DNA of 64,000 nucleotides from Pseudomonadota bacterium. GTDB lineage: Bacteria; Myxococcota; JACRCW01; JAFGSX01. The stretch lies in contig JBDRCO010000087.1 in the NCBI GenBank assembly GCA_043821645.1, forward strand, positions 32,001-96,000. Direction: 5' to 3'. Below the pieces are notes generated by a model. That model ran no database searches. It was not told the origin of the DNA and saw only the letters and a list, made by a program, of their open reading frames with translations. Position numbers and translations under genes: made by a program. This document shows positions 1-18,190 of this stretch, in pieces; position 1 is the first letter of the stretch; each line of letters opens with the position of its first letter.

Positions 1-1102
<1,102 letters not shown>

Positions 1103-1291
1103 GGCAACCCCCGAGATGGTGGATGGGGAATGCTAGACCAGGGCCGCCCAGGCAGCCAGAACCTGTGGCGTGGCCAGGCGCTCCTGGATGGCGGGGGACC
1201 TTCGCCTGGCCTGGTGCAGTCAGGCGTGAAAGCACTCAAAATAATTGAAAGGATCCATCAGAGTATGCATTGCAGTGCTGGAAAACACTTT

Positions 1292-1306
1292 TGGTGCTAG
1301 TTTTGC
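1292..1306 (+). promoter_or_regulatory. Candidate sigma54 (-24/-12) promoter for the Cys-rich lipoprotein operon
   Basis: TGGTGCTAGTTTTGC has exact GG-N10-GC spacing with TTGC at -12, inside an AT-rich intergenic patch; imperfect match to the TGGCAC consensus. Confidence 0.4.
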
Positions 1307-1495
1307 CCGCGTTTTGAAGACTGATCACTGCCGACAGGCCAGGACGTCCAGCACCTGGCGACTGGCTCCGCTGACACGGGCGCTGGTGATCGCTCGCCGT
1401 TGTCATTGCGCCGAACACAGGTGCCCCAGGCGAGGGGTCCTGACCTGCCTGGCCGCGCCCCTGCATCTCATCGCTGCCCACGAATGAGGTTCGTC

Positions 1496-4400
1496 ATGAC
1501 CCGTGCCCTGAGAGCAACGCTGCGTCGCCGTGTCATCCGGCAAGCTTCGACCTGCCTATCGCTGGGGCTGCTGCTGGCCTGCCCGCCGACACCGCCGGCC
1601 ACGCCCGACGCAGGCGCGCTGGACGCGTCGCGCATGGACGGCAGCGGTGTGGATTCGAGCGTGCTCGACGTCGCCCCCGGTGACGCGGCTGGGGCGGATG
1701 CCCTGCGCGAGGACGCCTGGACCGACCCCTGTCCCGCGGGAACACTGGGCTGTGCCTGCACGCCCGGCGACAGCTGCGACGACCCCCTGCAGTGTGTGCT
1801 CGACGAGTGCCGCGACTGCGAGCGCGGGGCCCTGGACTGCCGCTGCCTGGACAACAACGCTTGCCTGGTGGGCGCGGTCTGCCGGGCCGACAACGTCTGC
1901 GTGCCCTGCACCCGCGGCAGCGAGGCCTGCTTCTGCCAGGACGACGGCAGCTGCGACGGTGGTCTCGCCTGCCAGCAGGGCGTGTGCGTCATCGAGACCT
2001 GTGTGCCGGGCAGCGAGGGCTGCGCCTGTGACCAGGGGAGCTGCGCCGCCGATCTGTACTGCGGCGGCAGCGGCACCTGCCTGGCCTGCTCGTCCGACGT
2101 CATCGGCTGCGCCTGCGAAGGCAGCGCGTGCAGCAACGGTCTGGTGTGTGACCCGCAGAGCGTGCTGTGCCGCGCGCCCCTGGCCTGCGACGAGCTGAGT
2201 TGCCTGCCGCACCAGCTGTGCGAGCACCGCGCCCACGCCGACGCCGTGTGCGTCGAGGACTGCGAGAGTGGCTACCGCTGGGACAGCGGAACGGGCCAGT
2301 GCGAGATCATCCACAGCAGCTGCGATCCCGGCACCGCGGACAGCATCCTGGACAGTTGCGAGGCCCTGCACATGCACTGTGTGAGCGCGGGCGACCTGGC
2401 GGCCTGCATCGGCTGCCAGGCCGGCTTCGTGCTGGCAGATAGCGCGGACCCGACGGCCGGTTGCCGGGCCGTGGTGGACTGCGACACCCTGGGCTGCGCG
2501 GCCAGCGATCGCAGCTGCGTGCCGGCCACCGACAGCTCGGATGCCCACTGCGGCGACTGCCTGCCACCCCTGGTCGAGGGCGACGCTGGCGGCTGCGTCG
2601 CCAACCCCGCCGCCAACTGCAACGCGGGCAACGATCCCGACTCCATCCTGGCCCAGTGCACCACGGCCCATCGCAACTGCGACGACAGTGGTACGGGCGC
2701 GCGCTGCTCGGACTGCATCTCTCCCTTCGTCGAGAGCCCCTACAGCGGTCTGTGCGAGCGAACCGACGACTGCAGCCGGCTGGGCTGCGACACCTGGCAC
2801 CGCGCCTGCACCGATTTTGCCGACGGGCACTGCACGACCTGCCTGCCCGGCTACGTCGACGCGGGTGGCACCTGTCGCCCGGTGCTCACCTTTGCCGAGG
2901 TCAGCTGCGACGCGGGCACGCAGTTCAAGGTGCACGAGACCTCGACCCAGGACGCCCACTGCATCACCAAGCCCTGTCCCGATGGCCAGGCCTCCAACGG
3001 CGCCACCTGCGTCACCAGCTGTCCGGCCAGCTGCAGCGGGACCGGCAAGACCGGGCGCCTGTGGCCGCACACCCTGCAGAACGGGCGCTGCATCTGCGAG
3101 AGCGCGGACGGCTACTACTTTGACACCACGGCCCTGAGCCAGCAGCCCTGCGACGGTGACGACGACGGCTGGACGCGCCTGGGCGCCCGCTCGGCCCTGC
3201 GCTCCACCGACGCCGAGCTCAAGGCCAACGCCCGCTGCGACCTGCGACAGATCGATCGCTACAAGCTGCTCAACGAGTTCGGTCAGTTCAAGACGGTCGT
3301 CTCGTGCAGCGTTGGCGCAGAGACCTTTCGAGGCCCCTTTGACCCCACCTGCGAGGACGAGACCCTGCCCATTGATCTGTACGAGGTCAACTACCTGGAC
3401 GATGACGAGGCGCTAGCCGTGCAGGGCCCCGACCCGTACGGCATCGGCGCGCGGCGGCTCGGCGCACGCGAGCTCAACAGTCTGACCAAGGCCTGCTCGG
3501 CCCCCAACGACGACTTCAACGGCAACGAGCTGGCGGACGTCGGTGAATGGTCGGGCTCCACCTTCACGTTCACCGACCAGGCCAAGAGGGACGCCCTGAG
3601 CCCCTTCCTGGGCTTCACCTACTTCCTCGAGGTCAACCAGGGCCACTTCGAGGCCTCGCCCTACGGGCCCATTGGCACCTGGGTGGTCGCCGAGCGGCCG
3701 CGCTGCAGCAACGACCTCCCCCTGAAGTACAAGGTCGCCGAGGGGACCTACTGGCAGGGTTGCATGCGCAACCGCGCAGCGCGCTTCGACTCGGAGTCGG
3801 GCGCCTCGCTGGCCGGGCTCGACTTTGCCCGCTACTCCTGCGCGGCGACGACAGGCAGCTGCGACGTCCCCTCCCCCGTCCTGGGCGCGACAGTACCCGG
3901 CGCCGAGCGCGAGCACGACCTGTGCGCGGTCTCGGTGCCCAGCGACGGCTGGCTCGGCATGGACCACCACAGCCAGTTCCAGTGTGTGCAGGTGACGGCG
4001 CAGGCGCCATCGGACCCCGCGGCCACGCCCTACGAACACGCGCTGGGCGATCTGTACAACGGCAGCAGCGGCAACTGGCAGTTCAACCGCTGCGACGCCA
4101 CCAGCAGCACCAGCCAGGGCAACGCCAACGCCAGCGATCCGGGCTTCAGCTGCAGCGCCGTGTATCGCGGCAGCGTGGTCGAGGCCGACGTGGGCTTCGC
4201 GGCCCTGCGCTACCAGAACGACAGCCCGGCCTCGGCCTACCAGGCCGGCTGCCTCAACGAGTGCGCGAGCTGGCTCGACATCTGTCCCGGCTACACCAGC
4301 AACCCGAACACCAACGACGCCTCCTGCCACCCTGACCTCGCCAACTTCGGCGAGATCGTGTGCGGCCACTGCGCGCACGAGGGCCAGAGCTGCGACACCG

Positions 4401-5992
4401 GACAGGCCGGGGTTTGCGCGGCCGGAACCTACGTCTGCACCAACGACGTCGAGAGCTGCGTTCGCAACACCAGCCCGACCACGGGGGATGCGCTGGGAGA
4501 CGGAGTGGACCGCAACTGCGATGGCTTCGACGGCGTCCTGTCGGGTGCCTACGTGTACGTGGCCCCCTCGGGCAACGACTCGAACTCGGGCCTTGCCTAC
4601 GACCGTCCGAAGAAATCGCTGCAGGCCGCCATCGACGCGGCCAACACACAGAACCTCGACGTCATTGCCTACGACGGCACCTACTACCTGACCAGCGGCC
4701 CCGTCACCCTGGGCGCTGGCGTCTCGATGACCGGCGGCTACACAACCTCCAATTGTGCGGCGACCCAGGTGCTGTGCCTGAAGAGCAGCGGCGTGGCCAT
4801 TGTGTTGGTCCCGAATACCACGGCCGTGACCGCCACCAACATCACCTCATCGACGACGATCCAGTATTTCAACTTCGTGGCTCAGGATGCGCAGGGGAAC
4901 ACCGGCAAGCAAGGCAAGAGCTCCTACGGCCTGGTCGCAACCGGGTGCAGCTCCAACCTCCAGTTCACCTCCTGCGCCTTCGTGGCAGGCAAGGGGACGC
5001 CAGGTCTGGCCGGGACAGGCTACCCGGCGGGCAATGCCAACCATGTGGCCCAGGCAGGCTGGGTCGGATCGCAGGGTTTCCCGGGTATCCAGGGTGACGG
5101 TCGTCCCGGCGGCATGGGTGGCATCGCCGTCCCCTGCGAGGTCGGTGGACACACGGGCCAGGGAGGCTGGGGAGGCAACTCGGTCAAGGGTAACAACACC
5201 GGTTACGACGGCAATGTCGGGCTGTCGCCCAGCGGCGCCTTCACCGGGGGCGCCGCGGGTCTGGGCGTCGCGCCCAAGCGCGGCCCCCAGTGCCCGCCCA
5301 CCGGAGCTGCGGGTCAGCCTCCGACGACGCCAGTGGCAGCCGCTAGCTCGGGTGCCCCGGTGGCTGCCTCCTTTGCCTCCACAGGCTACACGCCCAATGT
5401 CGGCGGGAATGGCGCCAACGGGGGCAACGGATCCGGTGGCGGCGGTGGCGGTGGAGGTGGCGGCGGTGACCACAACATCGACTCGAGCGGCGCCTCGGGC
5501 GGTGGCGGCGGCGCGGGAGGCTGCGGCGGCCTCGCTGGCCAGGGCGGCGGTGGCGGTGGCGCCTCGATCGCGGTCTACCTCCACAACGCCTCGCCACGAT
5601 TCACGAACTGCGGATTTCTCGCCTATGGCGGTGCGGCAGGAGGCCATGGGGGTGCAGGCCAGGTCGGTGGCGCCGGCGGTCAGGGCGGCCGCTACAACCT
5701 CGGCACCTGTTACGCAGGCTCAGCCTACGGCGGCGCGGGCGATCAGGACGACGGGTCCATGGGCGGCCAGGGGGGCAACGGAGGCAAGGGAGGGGACGGC
5801 GGCCACGGCGCAGGCGGCGCGGGCGGAGCCACTCTCTGCATCTACAAAGGGGGCAGCTCGGCCCCGAGCCTCTCGCCCGTGCCCGTGCTCGGCACGGATT
5901 GCTACTTGGTGACCGAGGCGGCCAGCGGAGGGACCTCGTCCTCGCCCACCGGTGCGGGCGCCACCGGGCTCAGGCAGGAGGTGTACCCATGA
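1496..5992 (+). CDS. Giant Cys-rich lipoprotein (~1500 aa) with beta-helix-like region and Gly-rich (PE_PGRS-like) C-terminus
   Basis: Lipobox LLLAC; D/A-rich linker; repeated CxxGxxGCxC units; GDGVDRNCDG (MopE-like myxobacterial motif); YVAPSGNDSNSG...PKKSLQAAIDAA beta-helix N-cap; GGxGGxGG tail. Start chosen at ATG 1496 (GAGGT upstream); 1484 is an alternative. Confidence 0.85.
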   Translation: MTRALRATLRRRVIRQASTCLSLGLLLACPPTPPATPDAGALDASRMDGSGVDSSVLDVAPGDAAGADALREDAWTDPCPAGTLGCACTPGDSCDDPLQCVLDECRDCERGALDCRCLDNNACLVGAVCRADNVCVPCTRGSEACFCQDDGSCDGGLACQQGVCVIETCVPGSEGCACDQGSCAADLYCGGSGTCLACSSDVIGCACEGSACSNGLVCDPQSVLCRAPLACDELSCLPHQLCEHRAHADAVCVEDCESGYRWDSGTGQCEIIHSSCDPGTADSILDSCEALHMHCVSAGDLAACIGCQAGFVLADSADPTAGCRAVVDCDTLGCAASDRSCVPATDSSDAHCGDCLPPLVEGDAGGCVANPAANCNAGNDPDSILAQCTTAHRNCDDSGTGARCSDCISPFVESPYSGLCERTDDCSRLGCDTWHRACTDFADGHCTTCLPGYVDAGGTCRPVLTFAEVSCDAGTQFKVHETSTQDAHCITKPCPDGQASNGATCVTSCPASCSGTGKTGRLWPHTLQNGRCICESADGYYFDTTALSQQPCDGDDDGWTRLGARSALRSTDAELKANARCDLRQIDRYKLLNEFGQFKTVVSCSVGAETFRGPFDPTCEDETLPIDLYEVNYLDDDEALAVQGPDPYGIGARRLGARELNSLTKACSAPNDDFNGNELADVGEWSGSTFTFTDQAKRDALSPFLGFTYFLEVNQGHFEASPYGPIGTWVVAERPRCSNDLPLKYKVAEGTYWQGCMRNRAARFDSESGASLAGLDFARYSCAATTGSCDVPSPVLGATVPGAEREHDLCAVSVPSDGWLGMDHHSQFQCVQVTAQAPSDPAATPYEHALGDLYNGSSGNWQFNRCDATSSTSQGNANASDPGFSCSAVYRGSVVEADVGFAALRYQNDSPASAYQAGCLNECASWLDICPGYTSNPNTNDASCHPDLANFGEIVCGHCAHEGQSCDTGQAGVCAAGTYVCTNDVESCVRNTSPTTGDALGDGVDRNCDGFDGVLSGAYVYVAPSGNDSNSGLAYDRPKKSLQAAIDAANTQNLDVIAYDGTYYLTSGPVTLGAGVSMTGGYTTSNCAATQVLCLKSSGVAIVLVPNTTAVTATNITSSTTIQYFNFVAQDAQGNTGKQGKSSYGLVATGCSSNLQFTSCAFVAGKGTPGLAGTGYPAGNANHVAQAGWVGSQGFPGIQGDGRPGGMGGIAVPCEVGGHTGQGGWGGNSVKGNNTGYDGNVGLSPSGAFTGGAAGLGVAPKRGPQCPPTGAAGQPPTTPVAAASSGAPVAASFASTGYTPNVGGNGANGGNGSGGGGGGGGGGGDHNIDSSGASGGGGGAGGCGGLAGQGGGGGGASIAVYLHNASPRFTNCGFLAYGGAAGGHGGAGQVGGAGGQGGRYNLGTCYAGSAYGGAGDQDDGSMGGQGGNGGKGGDGGHGAGGAGGATLCIYKGGSSAPSLSPVPVLGTDCYLVTEAASGGTSSSPTGAGATGLRQEVYP

Positions 5993-8637
5993 CGCGGACC
6001 AGCACCCGAGACCGGCCGGCCAAGGGCTGTGGGTTCAGACTCGACGCGGACGGGCAACGACGCGCCGCGCTCTGCGGGCCCCTCCTCCTGCTCCTCTCCA
6101 CGGCGTGCCCGGAACCACCGCCAGCCAGCGATGCGAGCGCGGTGGATGCCCGGGTCGCGATCGACGCCGCCAGCGATGGAGGCAGTGTCGATGTGGCAAG
6201 CCAGGACAGCGCCACGCCCGACACCACGGCCCCTGACCAGGGTGTCAACGACAGCGCGATCGCTCCCGAGTGCGAGACCTCGGCAGACTGCGACGGCGAG
6301 ACCGCGACCCAGGGCTACCTGTGCCTGGCCGGGACCTGCACGCGCTGCGCCTCCAACAACCAGTGCGCGACCGACGAGCACTACGGCGACCAGGCACGCT
6401 GTTCGAGCGGCCGCTGCAACAGCTGCCCCGACGGCAACCAGGGATGCCCTTGCCTGCAAAGTGGGGCCTGCGCCGGCGTGCTGCAGTGCGTGTCCGGCAC
6501 CTGCCTGGACTGCGCGCGCGGCAGCGAGGGCTGTCGCTGCTACAGCAACGCCAGCTGCGACGGCACCCTGGTGTGCACGTCCGACGTGTGCGTGCCCTGC
6601 ACGCCGGGCAGCCTCGGCTGCCGCTGCGATGCGGGGGCGTGCCAGGGCGACCTGCAGTGCAGCAACGACCTCTGCGCCCCCCGCGCCTGCCCGGCCGGCC
6701 AGGAGGGCTGCGCCTGCGACGGGACCAGCTGCGACAGCGGTCTGTACTGCACCGGCGCTGGCCTGTGCGCCGTCTGCGTCGACGACGTGGTGGGTTGCCC
6801 CTGCACCGAGGGCACCTGCAGCGGAGGCCTGGCGTGCGACGGCACCAGCACCCTGTGCCGCGAACCCGTGCTGTGCGCGGCGGCCGGCTGCGTGGCGCAC
6901 CAGCGCTGCGACGAGCCGCCGGGCGAGGACGCGGTCTGCCTGCCGGATTGTACGGCCGGCTACTTCTGGGACAGCTCGAGCCAGAGCTGCCAGGTCACCC
7001 GCCCCAACTGCGAGCCCGGCGCCGAGGGCAGCATCCTGGCGGTGTGCCAGGCGCTGTACATGACCTGCGTGGCGTCGAGCAGCGGCGCCACCTGCAGCGG
7101 TTGCGAGGACGGAGCCAAGCCGGTGAGCAGCGACGTCACCGCGGGCTGCCGCCCGGTGTGGACCTGTGCCACGCTGTGCACCGCCACGGGGCGGGACTGC
7201 GTGAGCGAGGCCGTGGATGTGACCGACGCCACCTGCGGCGGATGCTTGCAGGACCTGGTGGCGCTGGACCCGGCCCACGTCGAGACGGGATGCACCGACG
7301 CCATCTACGCCGACCCGGCCGCTGCCCCGGGGGGCAAGGGTGGGCGCTGGGCGCCGCTGGCGAACCTGGCGTCGGCGGTGACGGCGGCGGCCAGCCTCGG
7401 CCTCGACGTCAAGCTGGCCACGGGCACCTTCAACCAGAGCGCGCGCATCGTGCTGCGCGATGACTTGGCCCTGCTCGGCGGCTACGACCCTGCGACCTGG
7501 CAGCGAACCTCCGAGCGCACGCGCGTGGTCACGGCCGACAACGTGGTGTTCCAGCTCAACGCGGTCAACGACGTCACCCTGGAGCAGCTCGATGGCGAGA
7601 GCGCTGGCTCCTGGGGCTCGTCCAACGGTTTTGGTCTGCTCGGCCGCAACGGCAGCAACCTGGTCGTCCGCAACTGCCTGCTGCGCGCGCGCGCCGGCAA
7701 CCCGGGCGCCTCCGGGACCGAGCAACACACTCCCGCGCTGGAAGGCGAAGCAGGGAGCCCGGGTACCCTGGGCTATGGCTCGGCCACCGCGTTCACCCTG
7801 ACGGGTGGCGCCGGTGGCGCCTGCCCGTGCGACGCCAGCCACGGCGGCGGGAGGGGCGGCGAGGGCCGCTGGGGTGACAGCACGACCGGAGGCCCAGGCG
7901 AGCAGGCCCCCGGTAGCAGCGCGACCCCGGGCCTGGGCGTGCCCCCGCTGCTCGGCAACCACAACCCCACACTCGAGTATGTGGGTGGCGACGGCGAGCC
8001 CGGCAGCGAGGGCGCTGCGGGCGCGGCCGTGCCGGGCTTGTTCGACGTCACGTACTACCGCGCGCGCGCCGGTGCCGATGGGCAGCCTGGTACGCCTGGC
8101 TTCGGGGGCTGTGGTGGGGGGGGGGGAGGTGGCGGCGTGGCCTCGAGCCTGCAGGCGGCGGGCAGCAGCGGCGGCGGCGGTGGCGGTGGCGGCTGCGGCG
8201 GTCTCGGCGGCGGTGGCGGGAGCGGCGGCGGCGGCAGCTTCGGCATCTACCTCTTCAACTACAGCTTCGTGATCGAGGACTGCCACGTCATCGCCGGCGA
8301 CGGCGGCGCCGGTGGCGACGGAGCGCCAGGTCAGCCCGGCGCTGTCGGTGGTGCGCCGGGACGCGCGGCCGTGGGCACCAACAACAAGAGCGTGGGCTAC
8401 ACCTCGCAGCAGGGCACGGCGTCCAACGGCGGCCGCGGTGGTTTTGGGGGCGCTGGTGGCGGCGGAGGTCCTGGCGCTGGCGGCGCGGGTGGCCCCAGCA
8501 TCGGCATCGTGATCGGCGGCACGGCCAGCGGCACGGTGCTGCACACAACCGTCGAGATAGGACAGGCCGGTGTGGGTGGCGGGGGTCCGGGAACACCCGG
8601 TCCGGACGGCTTCAGCGCCGAGCAGTACACGCCCTGA
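5989..8637 (+). CDS. Cys-rich lipoprotein with Gly-rich (PE_PGRS-like) C-terminus, paralog of the upstream gene
   Basis: AGGAGGT RBS and ATGA overlap with the upstream stop; lipobox LSTAC; same CxxGxxGCxC repeats and shared segment (CEPGAEGSILAVCQALYMTCV vs CDPGTADSILDSCEALHMHCV); Gly-rich tail. Confidence 0.85.
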   Translation: MTRTSTRDRPAKGCGFRLDADGQRRAALCGPLLLLLSTACPEPPPASDASAVDARVAIDAASDGGSVDVASQDSATPDTTAPDQGVNDSAIAPECETSADCDGETATQGYLCLAGTCTRCASNNQCATDEHYGDQARCSSGRCNSCPDGNQGCPCLQSGACAGVLQCVSGTCLDCARGSEGCRCYSNASCDGTLVCTSDVCVPCTPGSLGCRCDAGACQGDLQCSNDLCAPRACPAGQEGCACDGTSCDSGLYCTGAGLCAVCVDDVVGCPCTEGTCSGGLACDGTSTLCREPVLCAAAGCVAHQRCDEPPGEDAVCLPDCTAGYFWDSSSQSCQVTRPNCEPGAEGSILAVCQALYMTCVASSSGATCSGCEDGAKPVSSDVTAGCRPVWTCATLCTATGRDCVSEAVDVTDATCGGCLQDLVALDPAHVETGCTDAIYADPAAAPGGKGGRWAPLANLASAVTAAASLGLDVKLATGTFNQSARIVLRDDLALLGGYDPATWQRTSERTRVVTADNVVFQLNAVNDVTLEQLDGESAGSWGSSNGFGLLGRNGSNLVVRNCLLRARAGNPGASGTEQHTPALEGEAGSPGTLGYGSATAFTLTGGAGGACPCDASHGGGRGGEGRWGDSTTGGPGEQAPGSSATPGLGVPPLLGNHNPTLEYVGGDGEPGSEGAAGAAVPGLFDVTYYRARAGADGQPGTPGFGGCGGGGGGGGVASSLQAAGSSGGGGGGGGCGGLGGGGGSGGGGSFGIYLFNYSFVIEDCHVIAGDGGAGGDGAPGQPGAVGGAPGRAAVGTNNKSVGYTSQQGTASNGGRGGFGGAGGGGGPGAGGAGGPSIGIVIGGTASGTVLHTTVEIGQAGVGGGGPGTPGPDGFSAEQYTP

Positions 8638-8695
8638 CGCACACCACGAGCCCATCACGATGGCAGGGGCGTGGTCCCTTGCTGCGGAGAACACC

Positions 8696-11600
8696 ATGAT
8701 GCGACACACCCTGATCCTGGCCTTGCTGGCGTTGGCGACTCTGCTGCCCGGTGCCTGCGACTGCGGTGGGCCGCCGGCCGAGGACGCGGGGCCTGGCAAG
8801 GACGCGACCGTCGCGGTCGACGCGTCCGGCGCCGACAGCGCCGAGGTCGATGCGGGTGGGGCCGACGCGGTGACGCCGGATGCCACGACCGTCGACGCGG
8901 CGGGTTGCACGGCGGGCCACGAGAGCTGCCGCTGCCTGCCCGGCGCGGCCTGCGCGTCCAGCGAGCTGTATTGCGGCGACGGCGTGTGCCGACGGCCGGC
9001 CTGCCGGGTGGGCGAGCTGGGCTGCGCCTGCGACGTGGACTTCACCTGCGGCCAGTCCGACGACGACAGCTGGTTGCTGTGCGAGGCCGGGCTGTGCCGG
9101 CGCCCGAGCTGTCCCGCAGGTAGCGTGGGCTGCGCCTGCACCAGCAGTCACGGCTGCGACCCCGGGCTGAGCTGCGTCGCCGACGCGCAGGGCGAGCGCT
9201 GCCAAATCGACGACTGCCCGGTGGGCGATCTGGGCTGCGCCTGCTACCGCGAGCGCACCTGCAACCCCGATCCCTCGGGAGTGGCCCTGGCCTGCGATGC
9301 CAACCAGTGCGTGCGCTCGGCCTGCGCGCCGGGCAGCGAGGGCTGCCTGTGCCGCGCGGACTACAGCTGCGGCAGCGGCATGATCTGCCGTGACGGCGCG
9401 CGCTGCGAGGTGCTGCGCTGCACCCCCGGCTCGGCCAGCTGCGAGTGCCTGCCCGGCGGCTACTGCAACAGCCCGACCCTGGTGTGCGAGGCGAGCAGCA
9501 GCCAGTGCGTGGAGCAGGCCTGCGATCCCGGCACCGACGGCTGCAGCTGTCTGTCCGACGGGACCTGCGGCCTCTCCAGCGCGGGCACGGCCCTGGTGTG
9601 CGCGGGCGATCGCTGCGTGGCGCCCTCGTGCACGCCCGGCAGCCTTGGCTGCGCCTGCACCGCCCAGGGCAGCTGCGCCTCGGCCAGCGCGATCTGCACG
9701 GCGGGCTGGTGCATGGCGACCAGCTGCACGGCCGGCGGTACCAACTGCACCTGCGGCGGCTCCGGCACCTGCGACGTCGGCCTGGCCTGTCTCAACGGCG
9801 ACATCTGCGTCGACGACACCGGTTACGTGGGTGGCGTCTGTCTACCCAACGGCAGCTGCCGCGCCGGTGGCCGCTGCGTCAGCGGCCTGTGCGTGCCCTG
9901 CCTGGGTGGCAGCCTGGGCTGCAGCTGCGAGTCGGGCTGGTGCCAGACCGGCCTCGCCTGCCTGGCCGGCGCCTGCGTGTCCCAGCAGTCCCTGGCGCGA
10001 TCGCGGCCTGCCAACCCCCGCTGCTACACACCCTGCAAGGCCGACCTGCTGCGCAGCGACAACACGCTCGCGCGCTGTAGCAGCCAGGGCCTGCTCGACG
10101 GCTGCATCGGTGACAACGTCTGCACCGAGGGCTCGTGCGTGCCCAGGACGGTCTCGCCGTTCTGGAACACGGGCTCGACCGCGGTTCCGTTCTGCGCCTC
10201 CGAGCTGGACTGCCCGGACTTCCAGACCTGCATCGAGGGTCACTGCTACTCGGACTGCGAGCGCGACGGCGACTGCGCCCCCGGCCTGGCCTGCAGTCGC
10301 AAGGTCTGCCGCTCGCCCTGCCTGGCCGGTGGCGACGAGTGCCCGGACGGCATGTACTGCGAGGTCGGCAGCGGCGGCAACGCAGGCTTCTGCAGCGCGC
10401 TCGGGACCACGCTGGATACCGAGACCAGCGTCGAGGGCGGCAGCTTCACCCTGAGCAGCCCCGCCCTCAGCTTCTCGCCCGTGCTGGTCGACGGCGCCTT
10501 CCGCGTGTTCAACCGATCCCACAACATGCGCGAGTTCCACGTGCAGAAGAAGTTCCATGGCCTGTACGACGCCAGCGGCGCCGTGCTGGCCCGGGTGGAC
10601 GAGTTCCGCACCACCTGCGACTGGAGCAACCCCGACCCGGACATCTGCCCCCTGTCCTGGCTCGAGCTGAGCGTGGACAACGGTGCCACCACCACCGACG
10701 GCGATCTGGCCTTCGAGCTCGCCGGCAACTGCCCCGATCTGCCGGCCTGCGGCGACAACGACGTGTGCCCCGCGGGGATGTCCTGCGGCCAGGGTCTGTG
10801 CTTCTGCGACGACGCGAGCTGCGGTGACGCCTGGTCCTGCACCGCCACCGTCCACGTGGGCGCCATCGCCGACCGGCCGGGCACGGCGGCCCGGGTCAGC
10901 GGCGTGCTCGAGATCAACGGCCAGGGACTGGGCGCGCAGCGCGTCAGCCTGAGCTACCGCGAGTCACAGGCCGGGCAGTGGAAGGGCACCATGTACTCGT
11001 TCGCCAACTTCGGCGACCAGAACATGGACCTCTGGCTGCAGAGCGACCGCTCCGACGACACGAAGCTCGAGGGCGTCGAGAACGCCTTCCTCAAGCGCTG
11101 GGTCAATTTCAGGCGCGGCATCAACGGTCTGGTCACCCTGGACGAGTTCGAGGCCATGCTCAACGCAACGCTCACCGAGTCGTGGCGCTGGCCCTCGGTC
11201 AAGCAGGCCTGCCAGCAGCAGTATGCGACCGAGAACTGCTACCTGACCCAGCAGGGCCCGGTGGTGTATTCCAACGACAACATCCGCAACCCCGTGCCCT
11301 CGGGCGTGGTGGACATGCCCTTCGCGGTCAACCTGCGGCCCGATCCCGACAACAACCACGCGCTGACCGGCAAGGTCGAGAGCCGCCTGACCCTGCAGTA
11401 CGCGGGCGGCCCGGGCCTGACGCTGGAGTTTGCCGATGCCCCCGGGACCTGCAGCGCGAACTCGCGGCCCGAGAGCTGCACCAGCGTGGTGCTGGCCATG
11501 CGGAGCCCCAGCCAGAGCGGCAACCAGGGCGTCGACATCCGCGTGGGTGGCCGCTACCTCACCGGCGAGAGCGACGCCACCTGCTCGAGGCGAACCAACT

Positions 11601-14600
11601 TCGAGCAGGCCAGCGTGCCCTGGCTGGTGCCGGGCTTCGTGGCACCGGGTTTCGTCTACGCCGACGCGGCACAGCGTCTGGGCGCGCCCCCCTACAGCTA
11701 CGAATGCCGGGACACGCTGCTGCCCTTCTACCCGGCCAACCCGTCCCAGCTGACCGCGCTCAAGCCACTGAACACGAGCATGTCCTCGGCCAACGTGGTG
11801 CCGGACGGCCGCACCCGCCAGCGCCGGCTCGAGCTGATCGACGGCTTCATGGTCAACGGCCGGGATCTCTATCTGCTGGTGCGCGAGACCTTCTCGGTGC
11901 CCACCAGCGGCATCACCGAGCGCAGCTTCGCCGGCTACAGCCTGATCGCGCTCCGACGCGCGCCGGCGACACTCGAGACAGCCGACGCGAACCAGAACGG
12001 CGTGGCCGACGTGTTCGACGGCGCCGACTACAGCGCCGACATCCGCCCCACGCCCACCGACGACCTGCTCTCGAGCGCCTGCAGCGCCGCCGTGATCGGC
12101 CCCATCCCGGGCATCAACCAGGTCACCAACGGCAACGCCGGCACCGTGGCCATGACCATCCTCGACGGCATCAAGCCTGGCGGCACGCTGCAGCAGGTCT
12201 ACCCGCGCGGGGCCTATACCGGGCCGTGGGAGCCGCACTACTGGTGCGAGGACACGGGGCTGCTCGACGGTGGCATCGCCGACAAGGGACTCAATGGCAC
12301 GCCCATCTCGCCCAACACGGACACCTGCAGCGAGACGCAGGACAGCCGCGGGCGCACGGTCAAGCCCAACAACGGATGGTGCGAGGACGGGGGGCCGGGT
12401 TCGGTGAGCGATGGCTGCGCCCTGGCCACCGATGCCACGGACTGCGGGCTTCGCTACTTCGGCGACTTCCGCGAGCCCTGCCCTGGCGGTAGCCGTGTCG
12501 TGTACTTCTTGCTCAACAAGGACACGGCGGGCGACCAGAACTGGGTCGCCAACACCCCCTGCCAGATCGACGAGAGCATGTCCTGCTGGGACGTGTTGCT
12601 GCACTGGGTCGCCACCGGGTCCGCGGTCCTGGACCCGCCCTGGACCTGCGCCGACCCCGACCAGGTGCTGTGCAGCGGAAACCGCGTGGACCTGCGCTCG
12701 CAGAAGAAGTTCTATCTGGCCTCGGGCAGCCCGGCCGCGGTGTTCGAGCCCCTGGACTCCGTCATCGAAAGCGGCTTCCGCTACAAGACGCGCTTCCAGT
12801 CGCGTGGCGGACAGAGCCTGGGCTTCGCGCCTGACCTCTGCGATACAGCCTCCGACAGCATCCCCTACTGCTACGACCCGGCCAGCATCGAGACGGTGCA
12901 GCAGCGGGTGGACTGCCTGGTGGACATCTACAAGAACCGCTACGACAACCTGACCGTCGACCAGCAGGGCAAGCTCAAGGCTTTTCTCACCCGCGATCTG
13001 GCCTACGACACGACCAGCGGCCGCGACGGCTTCGAGCGCCTCAACGCCGAGCTGCTGATCATGCTGGGCGACGAGATGTACACCCGCGCTTTCTCGTCGC
13101 GCTTCGACCTGGCGCAGACGCGCATGCGCAGCTTCGAGGGCTCGGCCTTCGAGGCCGGCGGCATCAACCTGTCGGGGGGCGCTGGCGACGAGATGTACAG
13201 CCTGTACCTGGCGGTGCAGTACGATCAGATGGTGCTCGACCGCTTCAACCGCCTGGGCCCAGCGCTGTGGGCCAGCCTGGACGGGTCCGCGGACCGGCGC
13301 TTCGTGACCCAGGAGACCGTGTCCAGCTACCTGGTCAAGGTGGCCAGGGCCTCGACGCAGAAGTCCAAGGCCATGAGCGAGATCGCCGCCCGCTACCAGG
13401 GCTTCAACCGCTCGGACCTGGCGCGGCGCGTGGTCGAGCGCGCCTACACGGCCACCTACCTCGAGTCCATCCTGATCGGGCGCATGATGGACGCGCTCAT
13501 GGACACCCTGGCCCCGGACGACAAGCCGCAGGTGGCCCTGCTCAAGGAGGAGATCGCCCGCAGCTACCGCGTGGCCATGAGCGACATGCGCAACGTCTAC
13601 CTGCAGATCACCGACGAGATCACGTACTTCGGCTTCGCCCCTGACTACGTCCCGTTCCCGGCGCTGGACAACGTGTTCTTGACCAACAACGCCTTCGAGG
13701 TGCTGTACGACGCGGCGGCCGAGAAGGTCGATCTTGCCGCCGAGCGCGAGGCCACGGCGCTTGCCGACAACCGGGACTTCGAGACCGACAGCCAGGCTTT
13801 CCAGCGCGAGCTGGTGACCCTGCGCACCAGCTACAACTCACAGCTCGGCGACCTTTGCGGCACTTTTGTTGGCGACGACGGAGGCGTCTACGCCGCCACC
13901 AGCGACAACGCCTCCCACAACGAGGCTGCCGCCAGGTACGGCGATCCCTGCGGTCTGATCGGCAACGGCGCGCTGTTCCAGGCCATGGGAGATGTCGACC
14001 TCAAGGGGCTGGACCTGCAGGCGGTGATAGGCACGCAGGAGAAGATCACCGAGCAGATCAAGATAGAGATGCAGCGGGTGGCCGATTACTGCGACGAGGT
14101 GCGCGAGACCGTCGACTTCGAGTACCAGCAGGCGGGCGCCAAGATCGCCCTCAACACCCTCATCGGCATCACCCAGGGCACCATCGAGGAGGCGCGCAAC
14201 GTCTACGAGATGACCCGCGACTTCGGAGACGCCACCAAGTGCAACGTCGGCACCGCCACAGACTGCTGGCAGGTGCCGGTGGCCGTGGCCTCGCTGACCG
14301 TGGCCGGCGGGGTGCTGCTGACGGCCGAGATCATCGGCAAGGCCGCCATCCTGGCGATGCAGGAGGGCATCGAGGGCATCGACCGCACCACGGCCAGGTT
14401 CGTGGGCATGCAGCAGTGCGACTACGCCCAGGTTGACAGCCAGGCCACGGTCATGAACCTGGTGCTCGACCTGCTGGGCACCGACGTCGACCGCGTGCGC
14501 GCCGAGTACGAGATCAAGCTGGCCCTGAGCGAGGTGCAGAGGCTGCGCAACCAGGCCACGGCCCTGCAGGCCGAGATGAAGGAGCAGGAGCAGCTGTTGA

Positions 14601-15421
14601 TCAACGTCGAGGCCGCGCGCAACGACCCCAACGTGCGCATCTACCGCAACGACGCCATCCTCAATGCCGACGTCGCGTTCAAGGATGCGCTGGCCGCGGT
14701 CTACAAGGCCACCAAGATCTACGAGTATTACACCAGCCAGAGCTACGGCGACCTCGACAAGCTGTTCCTGGTGCGGATGGTGGCAGCGGGCGACTACAAC
14801 CTGCAGAACTACCTGATCCAGCTCGGCAACGCCTTCTCGGACTTCCTCGAGCAGTACGGCAACCCCGACACCCGGGTCGAGATCTACTCGCTGCGCGACG
14901 ACATCCTGGGCATCCCACGCACCGGCGAGGACCTGCGGCCGCTCACCGAAGCCCAGCGCATCGCCCTGTTCCGCGCCAAGCTACAGGACGGTTCGCTGCT
15001 GGATCCCCAGGGCTACCTGGTGGCGCCCTTCGCGACCAGCTTCCGCAAGCTGTCGCCGCTGACCCGCAATCACAAGGTGCTGTCGACCGAGGTCGAGCTG
15101 GACGGCGAGGGCGTGGGGGACGAGGTGGCCCGCGTCTACGTTCGGCAGCAGGGCACCAGCACCGTGCGCACGGTCGCGGACGACAAGCTGTACTTCCAGT
15201 TCCCGCCGCGCACCGCCGTCATCAACACCTTCATGAACGGCGAGCGCATCTTCGGCGATCCGCTGTACACGAGCTATCGCCTGCGCGACCGGCCCTTCGT
15301 CAACTCGGCCTGGGCCCTGGTGTTCAACCAGCAGGACGAGGTGAATAACCTCGACGTCGACCTCAATGACATCGACGACATCCGGCTGCTGGTCTACTAC
15401 ACCGACTTCACGGCGTACTGA
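8696..15421 (+). CDS. Giant lipoprotein (~2240 aa): Cys-rich repeats, central domains, coiled-coil hairpin and TcA-like C-terminal domain
   Basis: GGAGA RBS before ATG 8696; signal LILALLALATLLPGAC; about ten or more CxxGxxGCxC repeats; long helical region with hydrophobic segment WQVPVAVASLTVAGGVLLTAEIIGKAAILAM; C-terminus RPFVNSAWALVF...LDVDLNDIDDIRLLVYYT. The CDS is secure; the Tc-toxin similarity is inference. Confidence 0.85.
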   Translation: MMRHTLILALLALATLLPGACDCGGPPAEDAGPGKDATVAVDASGADSAEVDAGGADAVTPDATTVDAAGCTAGHESCRCLPGAACASSELYCGDGVCRRPACRVGELGCACDVDFTCGQSDDDSWLLCEAGLCRRPSCPAGSVGCACTSSHGCDPGLSCVADAQGERCQIDDCPVGDLGCACYRERTCNPDPSGVALACDANQCVRSACAPGSEGCLCRADYSCGSGMICRDGARCEVLRCTPGSASCECLPGGYCNSPTLVCEASSSQCVEQACDPGTDGCSCLSDGTCGLSSAGTALVCAGDRCVAPSCTPGSLGCACTAQGSCASASAICTAGWCMATSCTAGGTNCTCGGSGTCDVGLACLNGDICVDDTGYVGGVCLPNGSCRAGGRCVSGLCVPCLGGSLGCSCESGWCQTGLACLAGACVSQQSLARSRPANPRCYTPCKADLLRSDNTLARCSSQGLLDGCIGDNVCTEGSCVPRTVSPFWNTGSTAVPFCASELDCPDFQTCIEGHCYSDCERDGDCAPGLACSRKVCRSPCLAGGDECPDGMYCEVGSGGNAGFCSALGTTLDTETSVEGGSFTLSSPALSFSPVLVDGAFRVFNRSHNMREFHVQKKFHGLYDASGAVLARVDEFRTTCDWSNPDPDICPLSWLELSVDNGATTTDGDLAFELAGNCPDLPACGDNDVCPAGMSCGQGLCFCDDASCGDAWSCTATVHVGAIADRPGTAARVSGVLEINGQGLGAQRVSLSYRESQAGQWKGTMYSFANFGDQNMDLWLQSDRSDDTKLEGVENAFLKRWVNFRRGINGLVTLDEFEAMLNATLTESWRWPSVKQACQQQYATENCYLTQQGPVVYSNDNIRNPVPSGVVDMPFAVNLRPDPDNNHALTGKVESRLTLQYAGGPGLTLEFADAPGTCSANSRPESCTSVVLAMRSPSQSGNQGVDIRVGGRYLTGESDATCSRRTNFEQASVPWLVPGFVAPGFVYADAAQRLGAPPYSYECRDTLLPFYPANPSQLTALKPLNTSMSSANVVPDGRTRQRRLELIDGFMVNGRDLYLLVRETFSVPTSGITERSFAGYSLIALRRAPATLETADANQNGVADVFDGADYSADIRPTPTDDLLSSACSAAVIGPIPGINQVTNGNAGTVAMTILDGIKPGGTLQQVYPRGAYTGPWEPHYWCEDTGLLDGGIADKGLNGTPISPNTDTCSETQDSRGRTVKPNNGWCEDGGPGSVSDGCALATDATDCGLRYFGDFREPCPGGSRVVYFLLNKDTAGDQNWVANTPCQIDESMSCWDVLLHWVATGSAVLDPPWTCADPDQVLCSGNRVDLRSQKKFYLASGSPAAVFEPLDSVIESGFRYKTRFQSRGGQSLGFAPDLCDTASDSIPYCYDPASIETVQQRVDCLVDIYKNRYDNLTVDQQGKLKAFLTRDLAYDTTSGRDGFERLNAELLIMLGDEMYTRAFSSRFDLAQTRMRSFEGSAFEAGGINLSGGAGDEMYSLYLAVQYDQMVLDRFNRLGPALWASLDGSADRRFVTQETVSSYLVKVARASTQKSKAMSEIAARYQGFNRSDLARRVVERAYTATYLESILIGRMMDALMDTLAPDDKPQVALLKEEIARSYRVAMSDMRNVYLQITDEITYFGFAPDYVPFPALDNVFLTNNAFEVLYDAAAEKVDLAAEREATALADNRDFETDSQAFQRELVTLRTSYNSQLGDLCGTFVGDDGGVYAATSDNASHNEAAARYGDPCGLIGNGALFQAMGDVDLKGLDLQAVIGTQEKITEQIKIEMQRVADYCDEVRETVDFEYQQAGAKIALNTLIGITQGTIEEARNVYEMTRDFGDATKCNVGTATDCWQVPVAVASLTVAGGVLLTAEIIGKAAILAMQEGIEGIDRTTARFVGMQQCDYAQVDSQATVMNLVLDLLGTDVDRVRAEYEIKLALSEVQRLRNQATALQAEMKEQEQLLINVEAARNDPNVRIYRNDAILNADVAFKDALAAVYKATKIYEYYTSQSYGDLDKLFLVRMVAAGDYNLQNYLIQLGNAFSDFLEQYGNPDTRVEIYSLRDDILGIPRTGEDLRPLTEAQRIALFRAKLQDGSLLDPQGYLVAPFATSFRKLSPLTRNHKVLSTEVELDGEGVGDEVARVYVRQQGTSTVRTVADDKLYFQFPPRTAVINTFMNGERIFGDPLYTSYRLRDRPFVNSAWALVFNQQDEVNNLDVDLNDIDDIRLLVYYTDFTAY

Positions 15422-15423
15422 TC

Positions 15424-15442
15424 GGCTTCGCGCTTTGAAGCC
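15424..15442 (+). terminator. Short hairpin right after the operon stop (possible terminator or 3' stabiliser)
   Basis: GGCTTC-gcgcttt-GAAGCC inverted repeat; no U-tract. Confidence 0.3.
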
Positions 15443-15734
15443 CGGCTGATCGAAGCTCGCGCGGACCGTTGGCCTGCCCCGGATGCGTGCTCCTCCGGCC
15501 AGGGGTTCACGCGCGGGCCGCGCGTGGTGATCCCGGGCCGTGAAACGCGGTGCTGGTGGCGCTGGGCAGACCCCTGAAACGCACGAGCAGAGCCCTGCAG
15601 GGCCACATGCAGACCCTGGAAGAGTCACAGGAAGACCCTGGCTTGTGCCCTGGCAACCTTCCGCACCGAGTTCTCAGGCAGGCCAAACGCGCTTCATCGA
15701 CGTGGAGCGGGAAGGTGCAGGCCGGCGTGCTCGC

Positions 15735-18083
15735 TCAGCTGTGCTCGCAGTATGCACCGCGGCACGAGGCGCCGGTGGGACAGTCCACCAGGACGCAGCG
15801 ATCCGCGTTGCCGGGGACGCCATCGTCGCAGTCGCTGTCGGCCCGGCACGCGTTGACGTCGGGCACGCAGATGCCGCCGCTCACGCAGTCCACGTCGCCG
15901 GTGGCACCCGTGGGATCGCTGGTGCAGATCGCGATCTCGCAGTGCTCGCCGGTGACGCAGTCGGCGTCGCCCGCGCAGTTGAGGCTGTTGCTGGGCGGGG
16001 TGCAGAAGCCTCCCACCACGCAGGGCGGACAGGAGCCGCTGAGGCTGTCGCAGGCCGGGCACACGCCGCCGGTGATCTCGCAGGCCCAGCCCGCCGGACA
16101 GTCGGCGGCGCCGCTGCAGGTCCCCGTCGGCGGTGGCACGCACACGCCGCTGGCCACGCAGGGCATGGCCGGGCAGGGCGCGCCGGTCTCGCATACCGGA
16201 CACGAGGCCTCGAACTGGCAGATCAAGCCGGAGGGGCACTCCGCGTCGACGGTGCAGAATCCCGTGGGCACGCACACGGCGCCGCCGTAGCAGTCACCGG
16301 GTTGCGTGGTGCCGCCCTCGCGCACGGCGCAGCCCGCCACCTGGCAGGTGAAGCCCGCCGGGCAGGTCAGGGTGTCATCGCACTCGCCCGTCGACGGAGG
16401 CACGCAGAAGCCACCGACGGAACAGGGCTCGCAGGCCGCACCGGTCGGGCAGGGCGGGCACACCCCGCCGTAGTACTGGCAGGACCAGCCGCTCGGGCAC
16501 TCGCTGTCCGCCTGGCACTCGCCGGTGCTCGGCGTGACGCACACGCCCGCGGACACGCAGGGCATGCCCGTGCTGTCGCCGGCACAGGTCTCGCCGGCCG
16601 GACATTCACGACACACCGGGTTCATGTCGCAGACCATGCCTCGTGGACAGTCCACGTCGGCGCTGCACATGCCCGAGGGCACGCACATCGACCCGCCGTA
16701 GCAATCGCCCGAGACCACGGTGCCGTCGCTGGAGGCGGCGCAGTCGTAGACCTGCTCGCAGGCAAAGCCCGGCGGGCAGGGATGGGTGCCGTCGCATTCG
16801 CCCGTCGTCGGCGGCTGGCAAAAGCCTCCCGCCACGCAGGCATCGCAGGAAGTCGAGCCCGCGTCGCAGGGCGGGCACACGCCGCCGTAATAGGTACAGC
16901 TCCAGCCCGAGGGGCAGTCGCCATCCCCTGTGCACTCGCCCGCTCCGGGGGTGGTGCACACGCCACGGGTCATGCAGGGCATGTCAGGGCAGGTCTCGCC
17001 GCTGGGACACACCGGACAGCTCGCCTCGAGCTGGCACACCATGCCGCGCGGGCAGTCCAGGTCGACGCTGCACTGCGTGTTCGCCGGTGGCTCGCAGAAG
17101 CCACCTGCCACGCAGGGCGGGCACGGGCTGCCAGGTGCGCAGTCCGGGCAGCCGCCGTAGAACGAGCAGGTCCAGCCCATGGGGCATTGGCTGGCGTCGC
17201 TGCACTCGCCGCCCATTGGAGGCACGCACAGACCACCGCTGGTGCAGGTGGTGTCGCAGTCCTCGCCCTCGCGGCAACCCGGGCACGCTCCGGTCATCTG
17301 GCACACGAAGCCGGGCGGGCAGTCGATGTCGGCCGCGCACTCGCTACCCGACGGCGGGGCGCAATAGCCGGCCATGATGCAGGGCGGGCAGGCCTCGCCG
17401 GGCATGCAGTCCGGGCAGGCTCCCGTCCACAGACAGGAGAAGCCCGGGGGACAGTCCGAGGCACCCAGACACTCGCCGCCGATGGGAACGCACATGCTGC
17501 CGCCGTAACAGGGCGTGGGCGGGCAGTCGGCGCCGGCGCAATCCACGGCGGGCGTGTCGCAGCCTCGCGTGGACTGGCAGGCATAGCCCTCGGGGCAGTC
17601 GATGTCGGCGCTGCATTCGCCTGTGGCCGGGGGTACGCACACGCCTCCGCCTATGCAGTAGTCGCCGGTATCGCGCTCGGCCCCGCAGTACGCGATCTCG
17701 CAGGTGAAGCCAGCCGGACACTCGCCGTCGCTCTGGCAGCCCGTGCTCGCCGGCACGCACACCCCGCCCGCGGCACAGCGCTCGTCTCCGCTCGAGGTGG
17801 CCTCGCAATAGAAGACCTCACAGGTGAAGCCCGCGCCGCAGTCGGCATCGGCCTGGCAACCCGTTCCCTGCACCTCGCACACGCCGCCCGAGACGCAGAA
17901 GTCGGCGCCGTCCTCGACGCCGCAGTAGGCCAGGTTGCAGCGCAGCCCCGCGCCGCAGTCCGCATCGACACTGCAGGCCACGCTGTGATGGGTGACGTTG
18001 GGCTTGGTGCCCGGCTCTTCCGGCGGCGGACAGGCCGTCAGGTACAGTGCCCCCAGACTCACAACTGCGATGAGCCACTTCAT
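15735..18083 (-). CDS. Lipoprotein made almost entirely of ~17 tandem Cys-rich repeats (CxxDxDCPxGxxC...GGxC)
   Basis: AGGAGG RBS; MKWLIAVVSLGALYLTAC lipobox; ~40-50 aa repeat units throughout. Confidence 0.9.
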   Translation of the reverse strand: MKWLIAVVSLGALYLTACPPPEEPGTKPNVTHHSVACSVDADCGAGLRCNLAYCGVEDGADFCVSGGVCEVQGTGCQADADCGAGFTCEVFYCEATSSGDERCAAGGVCVPASTGCQSDGECPAGFTCEIAYCGAERDTGDYCIGGGVCVPPATGECSADIDCPEGYACQSTRGCDTPAVDCAGADCPPTPCYGGSMCVPIGGECLGASDCPPGFSCLWTGACPDCMPGEACPPCIMAGYCAPPSGSECAADIDCPPGFVCQMTGACPGCREGEDCDTTCTSGGLCVPPMGGECSDASQCPMGWTCSFYGGCPDCAPGSPCPPCVAGGFCEPPANTQCSVDLDCPRGMVCQLEASCPVCPSGETCPDMPCMTRGVCTTPGAGECTGDGDCPSGWSCTYYGGVCPPCDAGSTSCDACVAGGFCQPPTTGECDGTHPCPPGFACEQVYDCAASSDGTVVSGDCYGGSMCVPSGMCSADVDCPRGMVCDMNPVCRECPAGETCAGDSTGMPCVSAGVCVTPSTGECQADSECPSGWSCQYYGGVCPPCPTGAACEPCSVGGFCVPPSTGECDDTLTCPAGFTCQVAGCAVREGGTTQPGDCYGGAVCVPTGFCTVDAECPSGLICQFEASCPVCETGAPCPAMPCVASGVCVPPPTGTCSGAADCPAGWACEITGGVCPACDSLSGSCPPCVVGGFCTPPSNSLNCAGDADCVTGEHCEIAICTSDPTGATGDVDCVSGGICVPDVNACRADSDCDDGVPGNADRCVLVDCPTGASCRGAYCEHS

Positions 18084-18190
18084 GATAATGCCCTCCTGGA
18101 GTTCCCTCCGCAGCGCATGCTAGCACAGGCGCCGGCACTTCTCATCTGCACCCGTGTCGCTATACTCCGCTCGCCACGCCGGAGGTTCTC

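Follow-up and report, generated by a model that had tools for sequence, protein, structure and literature searches.

We analyzed a 64,000-nt stretch of DNA from a member of the Myxococcota (assembly GCA_043821645.1, contig JBDRCO010000087.1, positions 32,001 to 96,000; hereafter the window), concentrating on a long gene at 8696 to 15421 of the forward strand, which we denote A. We put at about 75% the probability that A is a very divergent, lipid-tethered translocon subunit of the type formed by the A subunits (TcAs) of toxin complex (Tc) toxins, with a minimal shell, exported by Sec, and belonging to a four-gene set whose other members we denote BC, X and Y. Tc toxins are known as complexes that insect and human pathogens release in soluble form, and their A subunit has a huge shell. 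To our knowledge, the canonical Tc components, the A subunit included, are without signal peptides. What is new here is a Tc core on a lipoprotein scaffold, with the new partners X and Y, recognized by no database model that we found.

Gene A and its N-terminal features

The frame around A is open from stop to stop over 8570 to 15421 (+), and both the length and the start of the product are identical to those of a public database copy (P0006, 2241 aa). An earlier note, made by a model from the letters and open reading frames (ORFs) of this DNA, had described a gene with a lipobox and a Cys-repeat N-terminus. The intact 2241-aa ORF, the lipobox-like signal and ten Cys-rich repeats agree with that description, and all of the motifs that the note quoted were found exactly where it had placed them. 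The gene and the features of its N-terminal half are:

8696..15421 (+), stop codon included: A, predicted 2241-aa lipoprotein and divergent TcA-type translocon subunit (ORF, translation, fold match to TcA)
8686..8689 (+): ribosome-binding site GGAG, 6 nt 5´ of the ATG at 8696 (read from the sequence)
8696..8758 (+): signal peptide with lipobox-like LLPGAC, Cys21 (translation)
8906..10435 (+): Cys-rich stalk, ten CxxGxxxCxC repeats and more Cys-rich modules to about residue 580 (Cys counts, repeat positions)
10427..11965 (+): beta-rich middle region, an immunoglobulin-like ASH/PapD/MSP-type sandwich (residues 578-757) and a small beta-barrel with a helical insert (756-1090), as predicted

The protein begins with MMRHTLILALLALATLLPGAC and has 120 Cys in total, 76 of them within residues 101-580. 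The ten CxxGxxxCxC repeats lie within residues 71-411, and the Cys columns of the stalk are almost invariant in an alignment (A2). With a permissive lipobox pattern, a lipobox-like signal was found in 95 of 124 full-length family representatives, and the two other A paralogs in the genome have better lipoboxes than the window copy. Judged from these sequences, a lipobox-like signal and a Cys-rich stalk are traits of the family. The G+C content of the DNA is ~67-75% throughout, and neither a promoter-like nor a terminator-like site was seen on scanning 15300-15800.

The A family is large and essentially restricted to Myxococcota, comprising at least 505 representative clusters. The last 1000 aa of A matched 505 clusters at E<=1e-3, of which 269 also passed E<=1e-30, which makes the ORF more than a product of chance; most of the matched relatives are 1600-2250 aa long, and the matches reach their C-termini. 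The source-given name of family members is 'hypothetical protein' (11 named among the 21 members listed, ten clusters). We collected 78 related loci from public genomes, nearly all of them Myxococcota metagenome-assembled genomes, together with Anaeromyxobacter terrae and a few otherwise-labelled bins. The genome itself (7.07 Mb in 140 contigs, 94.7% complete) has three A-like paralogs: the window copy, one on contig C42 (47% identical to the window copy over the last 1000 aa) and one on contig C118 at 58041-64253 (-) (44% identical). In a FastTree phylogeny of 72 rows, the window copy is sister to that of L003 (60% identity), a locus truncated on its upstream side by the end of its contig.

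We sampled 201 genomes evenly across the phylum, and the tallies take in one unpublished genome (G195). A profile of the C-terminal part of the family (A1, 22 aligned members) matched 36 of these genomes, and SpvB matched 81. In four of the 36 (G109, G157, G192 and G200) the matches were weak and came only from a second, shorter lipoprotein family of ~1240-1270 aa with a Cys-rich N-terminus, in which the A1 profile matches the channel and terminal domain at E 1e-17 to 1e-31. This second family is not among the matches to PF18276, the Pfam model for the TcB-binding domain of TcAs, and it lies directly upstream of signal-peptide BC (SpvB-RHS) genes in G200, G109 and G042. Its members include:

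L089 1329-5135 (+)
L090 8429-12166 (-)
L091 1143-4865 (+)

The C-terminal region is predicted to fold like the core of TcAs

The last 1000 aa of A were modelled with AlphaFold2 from alignment A1 (protein residue = model residue + 1241), giving a mean predicted local distance difference test score (pLDDT) of 74.4. The model comprises a helical domain (model residues 154-396), a non-helical segment (397-424), further helices (425-517) and two long helices, 518-605 (88 residues) and 619-734 (116 residues), with CNVGTATDC in a low-confidence loop between them, followed by a short helical neck and a beta-rich domain (817-996). The corresponding features are:

12878..13606 (+): helical domain, residues 1395-1637, aligned to the end of the helical shell of TcdA1 (model helices 154-396)
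13607..13690 (+): conserved non-helical segment YFGFAPDYVPFPALD... at the TcA linker position (no helix in model 397-424)
13970..14620 (+): helical hairpin, putative channel, helices 1759-1846 and 1860-1975 (model; aligned to the TcA channel)
14090..14092 (+): Cys1799 (YCDE), column C558, invariant in 22/22 sequences, 54 residues before the tip
14234..14338 (+): hairpin tip, Cys-bounded loop CNVGTATDC and then a hydrophobic segment rich in A/G/V/S/T
14417..14419 (+): Cys1908 (QCDY), column C667, invariant in 22/22 sequences, 55 residues after the tip
14861..15418 (+): C-terminal beta-rich domain with a predicted TcB-binding-domain fold (structural alignment to TcdA1)

Within the protein, YFGFAPDYVPF is at residue 1644 (nt 13625), YCDE at 1798, CNVGTATDC at 1849 (nt 14240), the start of the hydrophobic stretch at 1858 (nt 14267), QCDY at 1907 and RPFVNSAWALVF at 2199 (nt 15290).

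When the model was compared with the PDB by Foldseek, the best 22 matches were all TcA chains (TcdA1, TcdA4, XptA1, XptA2, YenA and TcaA-TcaB), at E 2.2e-12 to 1.1e-6, probability 1.00 and ~850-900 aligned columns. The match at rank 23 was the isolated TcB-binding part of TcdA1, and the first unrelated match had an E value of 5.6e-4. With VIA-align, TcA chains gave Z scores of 12.5-15.1, and model residues 403-997 were placed on TcdA1 2008-2516, ending at the last residue of TcdA1; in longer alignments, model residues 206-400 were also matched to TcdA1, starting at residue 1769. Compared by itself, the TcB-binding domain (6l7i_A, TcdA1 2327-2516) aligned with model residues 815-997 at Z 10.8 and a root-mean-square deviation (rmsd) of 3.6 over 139 residues, and its Foldseek TMt against this predicted model was 0.53. 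Because three successive domains follow one another as in TcA, the terminal one is beta-rich and the Foldseek E values show a gap after the TcA matches, we predict for the C-terminal ~600 aa of A the fold of the TcA linker, channel hairpin and TcB-binding domain. The module proposed in the earlier note, a helical-hairpin channel with a hydrophobic tip followed by a domain of TcB-binding type in the TcA order, is thus borne out by the fold.

The segment at the linker position is 28 residues long and has the family consensus FGFxPDYIPFPALD; model residue 403, within it, aligns with TcdA1 2008. In the 22 aligned sequences the tip is conserved in character rather than in sequence, with a loop mostly bounded by two Cys and then an A-, G-, V-, S- and T-rich stretch of 20-25 residues; the best 19-residue Kyte-Doolittle mean in the window copy is 1.99. 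A hydrophobic channel tip is described for TcAs (PMC6795518, excerpts), and we count the likeness of the A tip to it in favour of the TcA-type reading. Cys1799 and Cys1908 are 54 and 55 residues from the tip, so would be level with each other on the hairpin, and model residues 560 and 668-672 are at equal height in the predicted oligomer. A disulfide staple across the hairpin, as suggested in the earlier note from the Cys of YCDE and QCDY, is therefore plausible, although the bond may instead join two subunits. Cys1721 and Cys1752 also are invariant in the 22-sequence alignment.

Four copies of the hairpin (model residues 515-740) were predicted to self-associate, with an ipSAE of 0.73 compared to 0.00 for the best of three controls. 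In a calibration with two copies, this mark was reached by 20 of 30 proteins whose solved structures are pairs of one chain and by one of 23 solved as single chains. The four-copy runs had at least 87% of contacts in common, with a partner pLDDT of at least 79, and packed neighbouring copies together over their full length, helix 1 of one on helix 2 of the next. Since TcA pentamers have already been solved, this prediction may only echo the likeness to TcA.

The first 1240 aa of A differ from TcA. Residues 560-1400 were folded with alignment A2, the whole region in one fold, at a pLDDT of 75.9 and a predicted template modelling score (pTM) of 0.70. The predicted sandwich (VIA Z 11.4, rmsd 3.2, 97 aligned residues) and barrel (Z 9.3-9.8) were matched in Foldseek by generic sandwiches only. 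Before the linker position there is only the helical domain of ~240 aa, aligned with TcdA1 1769-2008. For TcAs, a trefoil knot is described that links the N-terminus with the final domain of the shell (PMC6795518, excerpts).

Genes for BC, X and Y accompany the A family

The single SpvB match in the genome is on contig C118, in an ORF directly upstream of the A paralog there. Judged by its domain matches, the product is a fusion of TcB and TcC, or BC cocoon, in which SpvB, an FG-GAP propeller, a TcdB middle region and RHS repeats are combined:

C118 64843-71184 (-): BC; Pfam matches above cut-offs SpvB 3e-25, FG-GAP_3 1.1e-19, TcdB_toxin_midN 1.1e-24, RHS_repeat 2.6e-22

A DPxxGRWxSxDP sequence, which we take to be an RHS-core-like motif, precedes a hydrophobic variable tail of ~250 aa at the end of the protein. 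The tail (C118 64843-65600, -) is rich in Gly, Ala, Val and Ile, has several hydrophobic stretches and no Pfam match, and looks like a membrane-active cargo rather than an enzyme.

Using this BC as a tblastn query, we found a BC gene within the 10-kb flanks of A in 40 of the 78 related loci; in 38 of these the two genes share a strand. Among the 69 loci with a complete C-terminal module, BC is upstream of A in 32 and downstream in eight; 16 have flanks that are too short. The association also is seen across the phylum sample, where SpvB was detected in 30 of 36 A1-positive compared to 51 of 165 A1-negative genomes, a difference that is overstated by the relatedness, and hence non-independence, of the genomes. 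Of 26 complete BC N-termini, 25 have a signal peptide with an AxA-type site just before a conserved GVS.DRV.LP.GPGS. The earlier note had read A as a device with neither TcB nor TcC near it. Locally, this is correct. The BC beside the C118 paralog and those in the related loci contradict a reading without TcB/TcC for the system as a whole, and the presence of an SpvB/FG-GAP/TcdB_mid/RHS gene elsewhere in the genome lessens the novelty that the note had claimed.

The note also had overlooked a conserved partner, X, just upstream of A within the window. The window genes concerned, and Y, which is found on C118 and absent from the window, are:

1484..5992 (+): X, 1500-aa Cys-rich lipoprotein, conserved middle domain at 3080-4549
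5989..8637 (+): X-like paralog, lipoprotein with the X-type N-terminal Cys-rich part, without the X middle domain (translation)
C118 64257-64793 (-), equal to L081 10255-10869 (-): Y, 179-aa lipoprotein between BC and A, with one Cys-rich repeat and a beta-rich domain

The middle domain of X has ~490 aa, an invariant CDxDxDGW motif and many Cys. A homolog of this domain is directly downstream of A on the same strand in 68 of the 78 loci and adjacent to A in 69, including L052, where X is directly upstream as in the window. Of the nine loci without X, five have less than 2.5 kb of downstream flank; L003, L011, L020 and L042 lack X despite flanks of at least 5.8 kb. Both other A paralogs in the genome have X downstream, at C118 54782-58087 (-) and at C42 ~87-2684 (-), the latter running into the contig end. 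X and A have only Cys-rich repeats in common, and the Gly-rich C-terminal region of the window X is without a homolog in the other loci. Neither X nor the X-like protein matched anything in Pfam (E<=0.01) or NCBIfam (E<=1). In the PDB, the X profile (alignment A3, from which row L053 was left out, its reference having two stop codons) matched only a 15-residue motif of designed repeat proteins, and in the Atlas it gave only weak leads (0.83), to clusters with a MopE-type metal-binding motif. The X-like protein is 47% identical to X over 283 aa of the N-terminal part. Its ATG overlaps the X stop codon and A begins 58 bases after its end, giving X, the X-like gene and A the appearance of one operon.

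Of the 40 BC-positive loci, 33 have a Y homolog, always flanking BC (22 after, 11 before); the 38 BC-negative loci have none. Y is 28-40% identical across loci whose BC tails differ. We therefore read it as a probable structural or assembly partner rather than an immunity protein. Like the X-like gene product, X and Y begin with lipoprotein-type signals. Y, signal-peptide BC, lipoprotein A and lipoprotein X constitute a four-gene set found throughout the Myxococcota.

A proposed model for delivery

The fold likeness, domain order, export signals, gene linkage and predicted self-association obtained here suggest the following scheme. A would be exported by Sec and lipidated at Cys21, and its disulfide-rich stalk of ~550 aa would hold the module away from the membrane. 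On the stalk would sit, in order, the two beta domains, the small helical domain, the linker-like segment, the ~215-aa hairpin with its hydrophobic tip and the domain of TcB-binding type. As TcA does with five copies, several copies of A could bundle their hairpins into a channel whose hydrophobic tip inserts into a target membrane, while the C-terminal funnel docks the BC cocoon, which would feed an unfolded toxin through the channel. The window copy would borrow the single BC from C118, and such use in trans seems to us the most likely arrangement. The pentameric stoichiometry, membrane insertion, BC docking and trans use, as well as the location or surface exposure of A and its target, are all inferences, as is the role in contact-dependent predation that the earlier note suggested. 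A broader picture, in which a cell-bound, Tc-like injector together with X, Y and BC delivers polymorphic RHS toxins into neighbours on contact, either from the surface or from the periplasm after outer-membrane exchange, is put forward tentatively, at somewhat less than even odds.

If this picture is true, the system would deliver toxins on contact by a route separate from that of released Tc toxins and from type V, VI and VII systems. Sec-exported SpvB-RHS polymorphic toxins are widespread without a known channel; the A family suggests how they might cross a target membrane and could supply the missing delivery channel for many such signal-peptide toxins. A also would be a minimal TcA for structural study of channel insertion without a shell, X and Y add two conserved partners, and a role in predation or kin conflict among social bacteria becomes directly testable.

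Weighing the assignment and the alternatives

A number of results weigh against the TcA-type assignment, and are considered here with the explanations that they might favour. By sequence, A matched nothing in Pfam (E<=0.01 for the whole protein, E<=10 for pieces), NCBIfam (E<=1) or, by phmmer, the PDB. PF18276 (TcA_TcB_BD), which the earlier note had suggested seeking in the C-terminal region, matched neither the whole of A nor its last 273 aa even at E<=10, and had no match in the whole genome at E<=1. Profile A1 retrieved only coiled-coil noise from the PDB (best E 0.072). Aligned by hhalign with the C-termini of five canonical TcAs from the same phylum (A4), it matched over the terminal 41 columns only, at a non-significant E of 0.15, so that homology to TcA is not established by sequence. 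The TcdA1-like terminal motif noted previously is the sole stretch aligned in this comparison; its likeness to TcA did not reach significance. As to structure, unrelated long-helix proteins had VIA Z scores of up to 12-12.9, which makes the helical part weak evidence when taken alone, and TM-scores between the A model and TcA are ~0.2, low because the domains are hinged differently. TcA shell, receptor-binding and neuraminidase-like domains were not detected in the folded residues 560-1400. The lipobox of A, LLPGAC, has an atypical Pro at -3.

The likeness to TcA might be convergent, with A a coiled-coil surface structural protein or adhesin that has no role in translocation. This would accord with the want of significant sequence similarity and with the high scores of long hairpins against unrelated coiled coils (SMC Z 12.0, RipA Z 11.4), but the match to TcA covers three consecutive domains in the same order and ends only at the C-terminal residue, with the beta-rich TcB-binding domain included, eight orders of magnitude in Foldseek E value separate the TcA matches from the next match, and the A gene repeatedly adjoins TcB/TcC-type genes. 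We consider convergence highly improbable. The main competing explanation accepts the fold and concerns its use: A and X alone would form a tethered pore-former or adhesin, BC being an optional add-on and the window copy never docking a cocoon. No BC-like gene is present in the window or on its 340,551-base contig, and the apparent operon of X, the X-like gene and A lacks Y as well. The link of A to X (69/78 loci, 68 downstream and one upstream) is tighter than that to BC (40/78), from which BC may be optional; BC is missing within 10 kb of A in 13 of the 53 loci whose flanks are adequate; six of the 36 A1-positive genomes show no SpvB; and BC-linked and orphan copies of A are interspersed on the tree. 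Five of the six SpvB-less genomes, however, are fragmented or incomplete (76-97% complete, 500-1050 contigs), and RHS genes assemble poorly. The genome does encode one BC, beside a paralog. Moreover, compared with BC-linked copies, the orphan A of the window is 48-59% identical in the domain of TcB-binding type and 61-70% in the neck, but 28-33% in the hairpin, a pattern of better-kept docking parts that fits continued use of a BC by the window copy. An A-X pair acting by itself therefore seems quite unlikely to us.

A further alternative concerns where a TcA-type complex would act. A, X and Y could be lipoproteins of the inner leaflet of the outer membrane, with BC in the periplasm, such that the complex faces the periplasm and acts across an inner membrane, for example after myxobacterial cells have exchanged outer membrane. 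Myxococcus delivers lipoprotein toxins by outer-membrane exchange. All four components have Sec signals only, of the lipoprotein type in A, X and Y and of the signal-peptidase-I type in BC, and we saw no outer-membrane translocation partner in the loci, both as expected for a periplasmic complex. The disulfide-rich stalk of ~550 aa nevertheless suits extended surface display at least equally, and nothing in the loci indicates exchange proteins. We view this periplasmic placement as fairly unlikely, and retain the reading of A as a lipid-tethered TcA-type translocon subunit.

Relation to known systems

With the TcAs of Photorhabdus luminescens (TcdA1) and Xenorhabdus (XptA1/XptA2), A has in common the end-of-shell helices, the linker position, the hairpin with a hydrophobic tip and the TcB-binding domain, all in the same order, and the A family has a partner gene of TcB/TcC type. 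Among TcAs, the core that is conserved consists of the linker, channel and TcB-binding domain (PMC6795518, excerpts). A differs in its sequence, which is only 8-14% identical to TcAs in the structural alignments and without a PF18276 match; in its lipoprotein signal, Cys-rich stalk and likely hairpin disulfide staple; and in the ~240-aa helical domain that replaces the large shell, with receptor-binding and neuraminidase-like domains undetected in the folded 560-1400 region. The BC of the A family, in addition, is mostly upstream of A and carries a signal peptide.

Yersinia pseudotuberculosis TcaA-TcaB and Yersinia entomophaga YenA1/YenA2 are TcAs that, like A, depart from the full TcdA1 shell, and such reduced or split TcAs are among the fold matches (VIA, 6rwb_A Z 14.3 and 9c4k_B Z 12.6). 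Yp-TcaATcaB is without receptor-binding domains (PMC6795518, excerpts). These proteins keep the helical shell and PF18276-type sequence and are not lipoproteins, in contrast to A. By analogy with split TcAs, X, as an extra co-encoded protein, may supply part of the outer structure, although it has no detectable likeness to TcaA or to chitinases.

Two families of polymorphic toxins also bear comparison. A 'TcdB/TcaC export pathway' class with a signal peptide, SpvB, a propeller and an RHS toxin is listed in delta-proteobacteria (Zhang et al. 2012, PMC3482391, excerpts), and BC resembles it in having a signal peptide, SpvB, FG-GAP propeller, TcdB_mid, RHS and a variable C-terminus. The excerpts of that study name no A-type partner, whereas here a TcA-like lipoprotein is the usual neighbour. 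Myxococcota teneurin-like proteins are shell-encapsulated polymorphic toxins with a Sec/SPII lipoprotein signal, enriched in the phylum, and their delivery machinery is stated to be unknown (2026, PMC13018210, excerpts). They are lipoprotein-targeted and Myxococcota-enriched, as is the A system, but have an FN-plug/NHL/YD shell rather than SpvB/FG-GAP/RHS, and A is a candidate for the kind of delivery channel that system lacks, as far as excerpts of that report describe it.

Canonical, PF18276-positive TcA genes were found in 10 of the 201 sampled genomes (E 1e-50 to 1e-119, ORFs up to ~4000 aa; loci L083-L088), several of them close to strong SpvB matches, indicating that classical Tc loci also occur in Myxococcota. 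The A family is distinct from these genes in that PF18276 does not detect it and the profile-profile alignment is not significant; the two kinds occur together in G012, G067, G104 and G186. Full-text literature searches found no paper on the A family, and in the main text of a Tc survey (Song et al. 2021, PMC7861908) the terms Myxococc, Deltaproteobacteria and lipoprotein never occur.

Other genes in the window

Downstream of A are two further genes:

15735-18083 (-): Cys-rich repeat lipoprotein, 782 aa, CxxDxDCPxGxxC-type repeats almost throughout, convergent with A
18191-19840 (+): phosphoglucose isomerase (PF00342, E 4e-237)

The first has no homolog in the related loci. A frame on the opposite strand, 15540-18230 (+), encodes an Ala/Arg/Gly-rich product with no family match (Pfam E<=0.01, NCBIfam E<=1) and was judged to be an antisense artefact of this Cys-rich gene. 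The phosphoglucose isomerase gene marks the end of the cluster of Cys-rich lipoproteins.

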